Assembly: GCA_003427395.1 (NCBI GenBank)
Contig: BFEA01000020.1
Coordinates: forward strand, 2,272,747 to 2,336,746
Direction: 5' to 3'
DNA length: 64,000 nucleotides
Origin: Chara braunii
Lineage: Eukaryota; Plantae; Charophyceae
Of this stretch, positions 17,652 through 59,640 are shown in pieces. Under the pieces are notes generated by a model, which saw only the letters and a program-made list of their open reading frames with translations, did no database searches and was not told the DNA's origin. Within the stretch, counting starts at the first letter, position 1; every line of letters begins with the position of its first letter. A program made the position numbers and the translations under genes.

Positions 17652-20600
17652 ACCTGTGAAGGTGGCGCCTTGTTGCAGGTACATCGAAGACGAAGCTGGA
17701 GCTATGGCGCCACAGGTAAGTCTCCCTGGCCTCCGCCAACCATCTCTCTCTCTCCAGTACTACTCTAGCTCCTAATAGCGCCCAGTGCTGAAGACTACTG
17801 CTAACGCTACTGCTACTACTGCAGCGCTCCTCCAGAGTGCTGCTGCCGAATCCTGAAGACTGCCTCCTGCCTCCTGCACGTGAAATGCCTGGGAAGTTCC
17901 TATGAACTACCTCGTGACTGTCTGCAGCCTGTAGGGCGGTGTCGTACCAAATACCCTTACAAGGGTATTTGGCGTACTCCCTACAAGTCGCACTAGTGCA
18001 GCCTCGTCCGCTCAACAGCGCGCGTACAAGAGGAAGTTAGGTTCCCGCCACGGCGAGCGGGGCACGCGGGTTATCGGCGGCAAGTTGCAACCATGCGCGA
18101 TATGGGAGGGCGCAACATAGGTGTGCGCGGCGTCACGAGCCAAAGGGATGCGTGGCGCTTATTCTTATATTTATTATTTATTTATTTGTTTGTTTTTGTT
18201 GTTTTTTACCTCGGTAATCGGTTCTGAGGCCGACGCCGGGCACGGTGGCCGAAACGGCAGTCAAAGACCTTGAGCTCGCCCATCGAGACTCCGACGTGAC
18301 CAAGGCGCTGACGGAATCCTAATTGCGTGGGAACGTGGACCGAGGAGTTCAATGTGCATACGAGCCGGTGGGTGATTAGCCCGCAAGGCGGGAGAAACCT
18401 GGGTCACGCAGGCCCTTTGTGGGTATACCGCCACCATCCGCGAACCCGCTGTGAGAAGTTTGTGTGTGACCATGCCCTTTGGGACCCGGAAAGGTAGAGA
18501 GCCTCGCCAGACGCAGTGGGACGGGTACGCCCGGAAGGAGGTCGCGGGGCTGCAGGAGCTGGCCACAAGGAAGCCTTCTCCGCCTCGGTCTTCAAAGTTC
18601 CCATTTGAGCATTTACTACTACCACCAGGGATCCGCACTGGGACCCGCCTTGTTTAGCCCAGACCGCGGCGTTGCAGCAGGGCCTGAGCTTTCTCACTGG
18701 TCTCATCGCAAGGCAGGGGGGAGCAAGGGGGAGGCCGGCTGCGATGCAGACGTGCAACTCGGTCGTCGGAGTTGGGTGTAGGGGGGGAAGGGCCAAAATT
18801 TTGGTCAGATAGCTAGAGATAGAGGACTGTCCTTACTGTGCAATCGATAGGGTCGCGTGCTACGACCGAAGTTGACATCAACGTGAGGAAAAACGAACGG
18901 AGATGCTAGGCGATAGGAGATGCTGAAGAACGGACGAATCTGGGCCCGATAACGCACCGAATACATCCAACCACGAACATGGCGGGCGATGGGTCGAGCG
19001 CAGTTGGAGGAGAGTAAATCGCTTGACTCTCATCGGAACCGGGGGTAGGAGTAGGCGATTCCGAGGTTCTAAGCTATCGTGAGTCTAGTAGTGAGGTTAG
19101 TTTTGACAATAGGGGGCTAGTTTGAGAGCAGTAGAAGAGAGGAGTTGCGCGGAGCCATGGCGGACGGGGGAACGACGAGGGAGAGGGAATGCGATATCGG
19201 CCGCTACTCGAAGAGATCGGGCAGAAGAAAGCTCTACTTCGGGGCTTTTTGACGATGGCGACCCGAGATCTAGGGCTAGTTTTAGTAGAATGTTAGTGGG
19301 ATAAGAGCTACTAAGAAAACTAGTGCACGAAGGGGGCTATGGCGGGACGAGGAAGGAGAAAGGTAAAGGAGAGTGTTATTCGCTCGATCCTCAATGGATT
19401 CGAGCGGGGAAAGACACGGTATAGAGGTATTAAAGTGAGGTGAATTCGATTTTGTTGTTAGTTTGAGTGATTAGTAAGAGTAAAAAGAGGTAAGTAGAAA
19501 GAGTAGTGCGCGGTGAGGTCGGGGGAGTGCAGAAGGTGGGATTATGGGGCAAAGTTTTCGCTCGATTCTAGACGGAATCGAACAAAGTGAAGTGCTAGGT
19601 AAGGGCTTTCGAAGGTTGTGAACATGATGGTAGTGATAGTTTGGGTCATAAGTCAGCGGTTTGCCCGGGGTCAGTGCAAAGAGTTGCGCTCGGGGGCAGC
19701 TTTGAGAAAGAGATGAATCTTTCCGCTGTTTAGCGAAAGATTCATCAGTATTCTTTTATGCTCAGGCGTTATGATCGAAGCAGGGCGGGTTTAGTTGCGG
19801 AGTTGGAAGTGCCTGATGGATCGATGTGTTGCTTATCCCGATGGTAGAGTAGCCGCTCTCTACCACCCGTGTTTTAGCGGAGGAATCATCTAAAGTTTGG
19901 ATTGGGTGTCGATCGTCGAATCAGGAACAACGGGCGTAGCAATAAAGGTTCGCGCCGAGAAAGAGAGAGAGGGAGAATACTCACCTGGAAAACGGGCAAG
20001 CTGAGACGCTTGTGCTGTGCATACCGCTCGATCCTGTATGCTTCCAGAAGGGTGTCTGGTCAGAAAGCTGCTCGTGGAATCAGAACGGAACAACTGGAGG
20101 ATAGTCGAGAAATTGCAAGTGTAGCTGCAGGCTGGTGAGCAACCTGTCCTGTTGATCGAAGCAAGCTGCAAGTGGAGGCGGCTAGGAAGAAGCTTGCTTG
20201 CTGACCGACGTGACACTCTCCCCACCAGCCAGCGTAGCAACAGGCTGCTGAATTTTTGTTGCCAGTTGTGCCTACTGGGCCTACTGATTACTGATCTTGC
20301 CAGGCTTCGGGGCCAGTAGCTAGCGCTGCTATTTCGTTTTTTGAGAGGCGAAGGTGTTTCGTCTCAGCTTGTGGTTCGGAGTCACACTGGTGACCATGCG
20401 GACCGTTAGTTCCCATCGTGCAGCTCATTATTCCACGTACCTCACATCCTATTGATCGAAGCAGCAACGGGCAACCACGAAGGTGCGGACCTAGCCATTG
20501 GCCGGTGTTCTGCGCAACCAGACGTGCCGAGAAGTGAGAAGCGAACAATGAGCTTTGGAGGCTTACTTGCTGATTGATACGCTGCCTATCCTGCCGATCA

Positions 20601-21419
20601 AGGTAGTAGGAGCGAGATCGTGAATAGGGTGCTGGCCAAGGCTTGGCGAGGACTACACAGTCGGTATCTACACAGGCTCCGCCACGTTGCACGACTAGCT
20701 AGAAGCGTTGTTGCTTCATTGCTGAGAAGGAAAAGGTTGGGTTTTCGATTCACGACCCGTATCTTGGGTTGCGGCTTGGGCACTTCAGATCTCGAGCTGT
20801 GGAGGGCTGACCTCGTTGGAGAGGGATGTTGCTGTGAATCGGAAGGATTATCAGAAAGCCAACGGCCTAAGGTTTAACTTTAAATTTGTCAAGATTCTAC
20901 AAATAGGCCATCATTGCGGGGCCCTCAGGCGCATCAAGACAACTAGGCCCTCTCTTGGGAGTTGAGTTAGTCTCTTTCTTGTATCTCGAGCGTCCGAAAC
21001 CCCTATCTTCTATCTTTCGTACTCTAAGTTTAGTCCAGTTCAGAGAGGAAGGCGGCAGGCGGGATTGCAACCCGTAGGACCGCAACAAGACTCCGTGGGG
21101 AGTCATCCCACAGATTGCGGGAGCTCTGCCAGAACTCAGGAGGAGTTCTGGAGGCAGGGAAATGAGAGGTAATCATTGTTTTCCTTCTATAAACCCATTA
21201 TAACCCCTACTTGTATTCATTGTTGCGTTTTGACTGAGTATATTATATGCATCCCTACTTTGACTTTAAATTTGACTGTCATGACAAAACCAAACTAAGG
21301 AATGTATGCGCAATGTCAGTTTCAGTTTTTATTGTTTGACTTAAAGCAGATTGTGGGATTGCATCTCGGGGAAGGATGGGAGGAAGGCAGTATTGCATGT
21401 TTGACTGGGACAACCAAAG

Positions 21420-57630: not shown

Positions 57631-59527
57631 CCATGTCAATGGCAATGAGAGAATTATATTTGTTTTCTGTTGCTCACCTGTATGTATGTTGAAGGGATGG
57701 GAAGTTAGTAAACGACGAAGAGCGAAGGGATCGCACCAAGAAGAAGAAATCTATTGGACATAGACTTTTTCCTTGAGGTTACCCGTTCTTCCACGAATGA
57801 CCCTCCCTGTCTATGCCCGTCTATCTTAATAACTTTCTCTTCTGTGATCTCTTTTCTTCGTCTAAGTTACCCTTGACGTCAGGCGACAAGGGACCATTTT
57901 GCCGTCGTGGTAGACGTCTTTCCCTTTCCTAGGAGGCATCTAAGGCGGGGGTTCGCTGCCTTAGGTGCCGGCCCTGCTAACGACTCGGAGTGGACCGCTC
58001 ATGCGGGGGTATACCATGTTGCTGTGGTGCAGCCAGCCCGAATCTGAGATCCGAGGTTCGCTCGGGCGAGGACGAGGGGTGTCCCAGACCACCTCCTAGG
58101 GAAAGGATATACGCCTATTCACAAAAGGGCTTTAAGACTTTTGACGCCTCGCGTTAAGGGGAGCTGCCATAGCATACCCCTATAGTGGTCGTTTTAGGGG
58201 TCACTTGTGCATGGAGAATTGAGCCACAAGAAGCTCGGTTCATGGTTACTAGTTGGAACAGAGCGCGGCTAGGCACTCTTGTCGTGGTTGGCCTCGCCAC
58301 AAGAAGCGAGGACCAATCGGGTCGATATGACGAGCGAGGCTTGGATAGCTAAAAGTCGGGAACGACCTTTCCCAGCAGGGTCAACGAGAGTCAGGAGGAC
58401 AAGGCAACCAACAAAATTTGAAGGCGGACCCTCATCTTTAATGAGGCATCCGGTGTTCGATTGTACAAGTCGATCGCTGACTTGTATAGTGGTAGCCGGA
58501 TTACTTGCAGATGGCATTCACACCAAAGTTAGAATGAAAGTGTGGTCATCACTAGAGCAATAGCATCTTAACTTTGCTTGGAAGTTGGGATGTCAGCATT
58601 TCTTTGTTAGCAGTTAGTGTGGTATGGACTGAAAGAACTTGGCAACGCACCTCATCAAGTCGAAAAGACGTGTCAGCCCAGCCATTTGGCAGACAAAGTG
58701 AAGATATTTTGGTCAGACGCCATTTGAGTGTCGCTATGCATGTAAATCATGCTTTTATCCTTTTGTTGATAAGTGTTATTTGATGTCGAGTCAACTCATC
58801 ATGGCTCGTCGTCGGATGACAAGTCAAGTCAGCCTTTGTCGATTTGATCTGAACGAGTGGTATGCATGATTGTATCGATTTAAGAAGATAAGTCAATTTA
58901 CGTTGACTTGAATTTTCTCTTGAAAGTGTTTTGTTTGATTAACTCTTGATTGTTTTTGAAAGAAGGGACTAGGATCGCTTGAAGTTTTTTTTCTTACGCT
59001 TGGAACATCACGTCCTAGTCGACCGGCGTACGTTCCGATTCCTGCGAGATCGGCGCCCTAGGGGCGGACGACGTTCGGGTTCACTTTAACCATGCGTACC
59101 TATGCTACAACGAACGAGCAAACGCCCTCGACCGACCTACCTTTGCAATTGGATTATAAAAGCCTTCGCACGTGGGTCGGTAGCTCGGCGGGGATACGCC
59201 CCTAAGGGTGGTGACAGCCCCTTAGGGAAGGTAAGTTGTGCCCCGCGAGAACATATCCTGTCGTAGGGGACCGCGGGATGTACAACTGGCGCACTCGGCC
59301 GGAGCGGCGAAGGGTTGGCGTGGGTTACCGTGTCGTCCCCGAGCTGTCTCTGAAAAGTTGAAAGCCTAAATTTCTCATGCGCGACGCGGCTGGGAGGGCC
59401 CTCGCTCGCGCGGGGGCGTCGTTCCCAAGTTGTCTCTTGATTTTGGTTTTGTTTTGTTTACTCCTTCGTGGCATGGCCGAGAGGGCTCTCGCCTTTGCGG
59501 AAAAGGCGGGAGCCGATGCACTCGACA
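57630..59527 (+). mobile_element. E5: 3' part of an E3/E4-type element (motif B 57920-58110, motif A 58964-59310), right flank ACGT
   Basis: GGCGGGAGCCGATGCACTCGACA|ACGTACCC. Homology to 49275-49800 and 51592-52081. Confidence 0.85.
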
Positions 59528-59640
59528 ACGTACCCTTAAGGTGTTTCGGTCCTATGCTCGTGATAATACAAAAGGGGCAGAGAGTTAGTATAAATCTTCT
59601 TTTATTTCCCCTTTTAAGCACAAGGCAGGGTTGAATGTCT

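Follow-up and report, generated by a model that had tools for sequence, protein, structure and literature searches.

Probable giant solo LTRs of Chara braunii occupy target sites with a central CG

In a 64,000-nucleotide stretch of Chara braunii DNA (the window), every junction of one family of very large repeats carries a central CG in its target 4-mer (NCGN), and about 200 further 5' junctions per public sequencing run agree. We regard it as reasonably probable that these repeats are giant solo LTRs of a Ty3/Gypsy family whose integrase selects CG by reading the target sequence, and that the family probably belongs with a Phygy-like clade, Phygy being a non-chromovirus Ty3/Gypsy clade of the moss Physcomitrella patens (Neumann et al. 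2019, PMC6317226).

Elements and junctions in the window

Three members of the family (E1, E3 and E4; Table 1) are units of 4.4-6.9 kb (4448-6873 bp) that begin with TGTCG and end with CGACA. Their TG...CA ends, together with a short direct target duplication, are those of LTRs. The terminal inverted repeat is merely 3-5 bp long, and no repeat is shared between the first and last 2 kb. The interior of E1 contains tandem arrays and no internal terminal repeat. E2 can be aligned to other members over approximately its first 45 bp only, and its 3' end was not found in the window. The junction shared by E3 and E4 is bridged by one public-run contig (51969-52115, 2 differences). A reading of 45206-47634 and 54688-56536 as the terminal inverted repeats of a single DNA transposon was rejected because they belong to two homologous copies in opposite orientation, each with its own ends, that share a 4-mer.

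Table 1. Family members, their flanking 4-mers and neighbouring features (window positions)
Feature	Positions	Strand	Remarks
E1 5' target-site duplication, GCGG	17936..17939	+	
E1, probable solo LTR	17940..24627	+	6688 bp, TGTCG...CGACA
E1 3' target-site duplication, GCGG	24628..24631	+	
Unrelated solo LTR, negative control	29519..30916	+	CAGA duplications 29515-29518, 30917-30920
E2 5' flank, CCGC	38508..38511	+	E2 known by its 5' end only
E2, 5' end of a family member	38512..39830	+	right limit approximate
Host Ty3/Gypsy gag fragment, left of E3/E4 insertion	44100..45208	+	P0011 aa 344-640 = 44299-45210
E3 5' target-site duplication, ACGT	45205..45208	+	
E3, probable solo LTR	45209..52081	+	~6.9 kb including N gap
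ACGT common to the 3' ends of E3 and E4	52082..52085	.	tail-to-tail, reused site
E4, probable solo LTR	52086..56533	-	4448 bp
E4 5'-side duplication copy, ACGC	56534..56537	+	1 difference from ACGT
Host gag end, protease and pol start	56538..57630	+	in frame with left fragment, one 4-mer kept
E5, 3' part only	57630..59527	+	left limit approximate; adjoins host pol fragment, same orientation
E5 3' flank, ACGT	59528..59531	+	within E6
E6, interior of an E1-type copy	59532..62942	+	both ends missing; target of E5

An earlier note on this DNA had reported a central CG at the insertion sites of the family, and each 4-mer it listed is indeed present at its junction. All seven distinct junction 4-mers in the window, which represent four independent target sites, contain the CG; the note's claim for "all" sites of the family is shown for the window only. 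Only E1 and E3 retain two identical duplication copies. The duplication is 4 bp long, as 5-mers mismatch, and at the E3/E4 site a single copy of the 4-mer restores the reading frame of the host gene; this site is continuous, as a ...LVTL[K/R]EIL-type sequence, in 22 of 53 homologous proteins. Given that CG occupies 4.4% of positions, the chance of finding it at 4/4 sites is 3.7e-6, and the chance that one and the same strand-symmetric central dinucleotide, whichever it is, occurs at all four is 0.002. The earlier note had also listed a solo LTR at a CAGA site as lacking CG. The CAGA duplications are present, but no similarity between this LTR (29519-30916) and the CG-site family was found; it belongs to a different family and thus is no exception.

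Junctions of other copies

Contigs from four public runs provided junctions of further copies. These runs are not independent: they represent two samples from one study and are possibly the window's own source. Two runs from soil metagenomes, X5 and X6 (share 0.05-0.06), were left out, and summed contig depths were not taken as copy numbers. At the 5' end of E1, loose-end piles of 60 and 53 contigs in run X1, and of 56 and 54 contigs in run X3, run through the CG of the flank. By alignment alone, CG is therefore present at 5' junctions in at least 113/235 (X1) and at least 110/251 (X3) contigs (at least 44-48%), a 22-25 fold excess over the 2% expected, where the denominators assume that two unlisted piles each equal the smallest listed pile in size. 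The six piles listed per run do not include the two that would correspond to non-CG flanks. Piles of 86 and 89 contigs at this end do not match the flank, and the consensus of both is ACGT.

The 3' ends gave the same result, with a central CG in 8/8 pile consensuses (two ends in four runs). For the E4 3' end, xCGT-matching piles stand to unmatched ones at a ratio of 0.57-0.71, versus 0.011 expected. The CG preference thus covers hundreds of junctions, both ends and two divergent subfamilies. It is accompanied by a weak palindromic extension, with T two bases before the 4-mer and A two bases after it. Because contigs carrying a primer site (see below) bias the outermost bases of the 3' pile consensuses, these bases were not used for base preference.

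LTR identity and a candidate integrase donor

In other copies, a tRNA-type primer site lies beyond the 3' end. It was seen in one contig type, in 3/4 runs, where TTCGATC...CCA (23 nt) and 2 more nt immediately adjoin the 3' end; the 23 nt, counted by eye, equal the canonical distance from T-loop to CCA. The same (C)AACGG string, compared by eye, occurs in the same register in the four pile consensuses at 52086. We take the site to resemble tRNA-Asp. With a primer site following the 3' end in other copies, the most likely identity of E1, E3 and E4 is that of giant solo LTRs from a Ty3/Gypsy family.

In the window, none of the primer-site motifs and tRNA genes adjoins an element end, and no copy with two direct LTRs around a gag-pol was seen. 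The 5'-junction consensus contains a shared upstream string that is mixed and not clearly purine-rich, with no clear polypurine tract; the string has no match in the window and none to an integrase C-terminus. No coding capacity was found in E1, E3 and E4, and no transposase among the ORFs tested. Five ORFs in or near E3/E4 contain no Pfam family above cut-off, and no homologue of similar length was found for the ORF at 50343-50936. Four weak matches of the ORF at 49867-50361 to unrelated repeat proteins were judged to be noise. The element terminus pattern had 0 matches in metagenome and viral contigs.

The likely donor of the integrase is the chromodomain-less, DUF4100-type Gypsy clade whose gag-pol is interrupted by E3/E4, although the link is circumstantial. 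This clade is the sole non-chromovirus gag-pol in the window and has the domain order PR-RT-RH-INT. In the 14 clade proteins scanned, a chromodomain was present in none and DUF4100 in three, below the curated cut-off; in three clade models the integrase stops at its C-terminal domain. Atlas neighbours of the clade are DUF4100/protease clusters from Basidiomycota and Streptophyta, homologue searches returned only Chara proteins among the matches listed, and no relatives were confirmed among 600 and 598 pattern matches in viral and metagenome contigs. The tie between the clade and the LTRs is weak, in that only two of its 161 Chara gene models (P0027 and P0032) overlap E-sequence, both in LTR orientation. 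E5 also abuts pol, which an unrelated deletion explains equally well.

Target choice and known systems

The earlier note had suggested a sequence- or methylation-directed integrase that steers insertion into CpG-rich DNA. Direction by sequence is supported, because the CG preference recurs over hundreds of junctions, at either end and in each of two divergent subfamilies, with a weak palindromic extension. PMC4422553 describes such extensions as typical of integrases and a central YR as the preference of 4-bp integrases. The data do not support steering into CpG-rich DNA: at the four sites, the CpG density of the flanks ranks at percentiles 21, 17, 98 and 34 of the window background, below the median at 3/4 (n=4, low power). 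Mechanistically, a symmetric integrase complex would cut with a 4-base stagger around the flexible C-G step, and CG would be selected through both reading and bending of the target, the flexible step being complemented by base-specific contacts. The enzyme would be supplied by the gag-pol clade of 44100-57630, and later LTR-LTR recombination would leave the solo LTRs.

The same sequence-reading mechanism could instead serve LTRs of another Ty3/Gypsy lineage, Athila/Tat-like, that acquired NCGN targeting independently, the gag-pol being merely a target. In favour of such a lineage, OTA elements typically have large LTRs that carry tandem arrays, Athila and TatII are primed mainly by tRNA-Asp (72% and 37%, respectively) and 49% of TatII have a 4-bp duplication (PMC6317226); the family's tie to the host gag-pol clade is, besides, circumstantial. 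We nevertheless consider this origin unlikely, as duplication sequences are variable in every surveyed lineage but Phygy (PMC6317226) and the window's only non-chromovirus gag-pol is of the DUF4100 type.

More doubtful still is recognition of methylated CG by the integrase or a cofactor, which would direct insertions into silenced repeats. In its favour, two of the four insertions demonstrably hit other retroelements (gag for E3/E4, E6 for E5), a site was used twice, and the copies of the family have a C>T/G>A bias (~40 of 105-111 variable places per run), as methylated repeats do. However, repeat targets are expected because most of the window consists of repeats, flanks at 3/4 sites are not CpG-rich, and scans of the candidate polyproteins found no chromodomain. 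Methylation dependence is also not needed for CG choice, since the integrase of Drosophila ZAM binds CGCGCg directly in vitro (PMC2527525). Neither Chara methylation nor the target sites of Phygy are covered in the portions of PMC5890265 and PMC7466625 consulted. In a speculative extension to which we give little credence, the integrase would read methylated CG without a chromodomain and sink copies into silenced repeats, including its own earlier duplications (the tail-to-tail E3/E4), with the reader shared by an ancient fungal-moss-charophyte clade.

It is very improbable that the units are non-autonomous DNA transposons of the Ginger1 type, mobilised by a transposase resembling a Gypsy integrase. 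Ginger1 has TGTNR ends, sizes of 2.6-7 kb and 4-bp CCGG (75%) or CCGT/ACGG (24%) duplications (PMC2836005), but its terminal inverted repeats are 40-270 bp versus 3-5 bp here, a tRNA primer site lies beyond the 3' end in other Chara copies, and no transposase turned up among the ORFs tested. Finally, small-sample chance (just four independent sites in the window), or an alignment artefact in which flank-matching contigs align more easily to a short conserved 5' end, is effectively refuted by P=0.002 even with any dinucleotide allowed, by the CG consensus of piles without a flank match, which alignment bias does not favour, and by the agreement of the long 3' alignments.

NCGN targeting itself is not new: it is published for moss Phygy (PMC6317226), and CCGG targeting for Ginger1 (PMC2836005). 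In a search confined to open-licence PMC and bioRxiv, no paper describing the Chara family was found. [quoted passage not shown] That survey limited its LTR search to 6 kb (PMC6317226), and because LTRs here reach ~6.9 kb the family may escape detection or be misannotated. In Chara, a high-copy family with NCGN targeting would take the specificity back to the charophyte-moss ancestor, or indicate fungal exchange or an independent origin. With its many insertion sites, the question of sequence versus methylation is directly testable with a methylome.

Four known systems bear comparison with the Chara family. ZAM (PMC2527525) is likewise an LTR retrotransposon, and the target of its integrase is a CG-containing palindrome, but it is an errantivirus, its CGCGCg consensus is longer, and its target choice is backed by direct biochemical proof. 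Ginger1 (Bao et al. 2010, PMC2836005) shares the TGTNR ends, CG-centred 4-bp duplications and Gypsy-type integrase chemistry, and differs in its long inverted repeats, transposase ORF, narrower CCGG preference and lack of a primer site. Athila/Tat (OTA) elements also have very large LTRs with tandem arrays and commonly a tRNA-Asp primer, but their duplications are mostly 5-bp and sequence-variable (PMC6317226) rather than 4-bp NCGN. Phygy, in which 186 elements have a 4 bp duplication (100%) of the form NCGN (PMC6317226), shares this duplication and tRNA priming with the Chara family, and no chromodomain was seen in the polyproteins of the gag-pol clade that may own the Chara LTRs. The family is probably a member of a Phygy-like clade. 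The two differ in host (moss versus charophyte), in primer (tRNA-Trp in 81% of Phygy versus a tRNA-Asp-like site here) and in size, since whole Phygy elements of 7.7-10 kb (mean 8.6 kb; PMC6317226) are too short for two LTRs of 4.4-6.9 kb.

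CG at the insertion sites of the family

The window is eukaryotic DNA rich in repeats. Among them, the copies E1-E5 of one family carry a central CG in all seven distinct junction 4-mers, which represent four independent sites. CG occupies 4.4% of positions in the window, giving a chance of 3.7e-6 that all four sites contain it, or of 0.002 when any common central dinucleotide is counted. The CpG-centred insertion sites described in the earlier note are thus present at every family junction in the window. CAGA duplications flank the solo LTR at 29519-30916, which shows no similarity to this family. 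As for the other repeats, both LINE tandem duplications are likely to be assembly artefacts.

Family copies and other repeats in the window
Feature	Position	Strand	Junctions or remarks
E1	17940-24627	+	GCGG on either side
E2	start 38512		preceded by CCGC; 3' end lacking
E3	45209-52081	+	ACGT on either side
E4	52086-56533	-	ACGT (52082-52085) common to E3; other end at ACGC
E5	end 59527		followed by ACGT; 5' end lacking
LINE (reverse transcriptase)	10439-13633	-	perfect 96-bp tandem duplications at 14104-14294 and 16313-16503, the latter with N at the seam
Chromovirus-type Gypsy pol	277-2184		fragment
Chromovirus-type Gypsy pol	26942-27562		fragment
Chromovirus-type Gypsy pol	40861-43127	-	fragment broken within RT at about 43127

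Junctions of other copies were read from contigs of four public runs (two samples, one study), which are possibly the source of the window itself. At the 3' end of E3 (52081), 34, 38, 40 and 39 contigs leave the element, and the pile consensuses start CCGG, CCGG, GCGC and CCGG. At the 3' end of E4 (52086), 65, 51, 67 and 52 contigs leave it, with consensuses ending CCGG, CCGG, CCGC and CCGC; a further 45, 36, 38 and 31 agree with the flank CGT before diverging, a matched-to-unmatched ratio of 0.57-0.71 versus an expected 0.011. At the 5' end of E1, examined in two of the four runs, 60+53 and 56+54 contigs read through the flank CG, and the 86 and 89 contigs lacking a flank match both have the consensus ACGT. 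Piles for non-CG flanks were absent from the six listed per run. With these piles set equal to the smallest one listed (18 and 26), a value inferred from presumed listing rank, CG is found in at least 113/235 and at least 110/251 contigs, compared with 2% expected. These shares are lower bounds from a minority of the rows, 724 and 98 others lying outside the listing. Given this excess at both ends, the junctions do not show the lack of CG enrichment that the earlier note had named as evidence against its claim.

Element ends and internal structure

Family members begin with TGTCG and a 24-bp inverted repeat and end in ...GCCGATGCGCTCGACA; their terminal inverted repeats span 3-5 bp. The 24-bp repeat (17948-17971, 45217-45240 and 56502-56525) is the best-conserved part among subfamilies, with a compensatory A-T to G-C change in E3 and a 7-bp duplication in E2. 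No repeat was found between the first and last 2 kb of the elements, and no transposase or other known domain among the ORFs tested. E3 is collinear with E4 across about 2.3 kb of aligned blocks. E1 has only its ends in common with these two and shares internal blocks with E6, the internal part of an E1-type copy into which E5 inserted.

In a contig from three of the four runs, a tRNA 3' end and two spacer bases adjoin the 3' terminus (T-loop to CCA, 23 nt counted by eye), and the 52086 pile consensuses have matching letters in the same register. A sizeable fraction of 3' ends therefore continues into a primer-binding site, apparently for tRNA-Asp, so that E1, E3 and E4, with lengths of 4.4-6.9 kb, are most likely solo LTRs. 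The 5'-junction consensus had no clear polypurine tract in two runs. In a contig joining 52146 to 52086, the LTR end is followed by the primer site, which extends about 30 nt into tRNA-like sequence (usually 18), after which the final 61 bp of the LTR appear once more; this looks like reverse transcription into the primer tRNA and then a template switch.

Several internal features were also observed. The block at 49800-51590 is present in E3 and absent from E4 and E5, and a homologue search with its pair of overlapping ORFs, of 165 and 198 aa, gave none. Related arrays of short spaced repeats occupy 21440-22100 in E1 and 59728-60340 in E6, and E5 lies at the ACGT starting one unit of the latter. 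E2 and E6 break off at an identical string, GTAAAACCAAATATTTTT (39829-39848 and 62937-62956), which may mark where another mobile element ends.

The interrupted gag-pol

E3 and E4 split a single gag-protease frame: residues 344-640 of protein P0011 correspond to 44299-45210 and residues 638-936 to 56531-57430. Together with this mapping, the 22 of 53 homologues that match the pattern across the site set the boundaries and show that the duplication is 4 bp long. The protease ORF (56681-57436) has 53 protein matches, all from Chara braunii, almost full length and up to 85% identical. Since one run contig covers the E3/E4 junction with two differences, assembly error is unlikely to be the source of the tail-to-tail arrangement. 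The elements are joined by one 4-mer (52082-52085), present in three copies (ACGT, ACGT and ACGC). By our estimate, insertion at random among CG sites would be unlikely to hit exactly a duplication that was already there; one base change from ACGT explains the ACGC copy, whichever element inserted first.

The clade of the interrupted gag-pol, a candidate integrase source, has the Ty3/Gypsy domain order, and Ty3 is its closest solved relative. A chromodomain was absent from all 14 proteins, and DUF4100, defined from Physcomitrella, was weakly matched in three. In the Atlas, its neighbours are clusters from fungi and streptophytes, two of which carry DUF4100, and the integrase homologues are all from Chara among the 120 listed of 151. 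E5 adjoins the host pol in identical orientation, and E3-like sequence occurs in the same orientation in 2 of 161 clade gene models. The tie between this clade and the family LTRs is weak.

Target choice and known systems

CG-centred 4-bp duplications were seen at both 5' and 3' ends. T stands two bases before the 4-mer in every one of the four flank-matched 5' piles; at 52081, all four piles have A two bases beyond it. A symmetric integrase complex may bend the target at the central pyrimidine-purine step, as do retroviral integrases with 4-bp duplications, which also favour outer T and A (PMC4422553); base-specific contacts, for which the ZAM integrase is a precedent (PMC2527525), would then narrow the choice from any YR to CG. 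In LTR elements generally, palindromic target motifs reach beyond the duplication (PMC3276498). The proposed steering into CpG-rich DNA was not borne out, the flanks of the four sites lying at the 21st, 17th, 98th and 34th percentile of CpG density among 345 background windows.

That CG targeting by the Chara family is real is well supported. A literature search (open-licence PMC, bioRxiv) returned no description of the family in Chara. Ginger1 DNA transposons make CCGG-type duplications (PMC2836005), but their inverted repeats are long, in contrast to the 3-5 bp found here. PMC6317226 presents Phygy, with its 4-bp NCGN duplications, as the sole sequence-specific plant lineage. The Chara family resembles Phygy in target choice, but its LTRs differ in size and so, apparently, does its primer; we do not class the family as Phygy. 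The kind of system is already known, and what is new is the host lineage and the unusually large LTRs.
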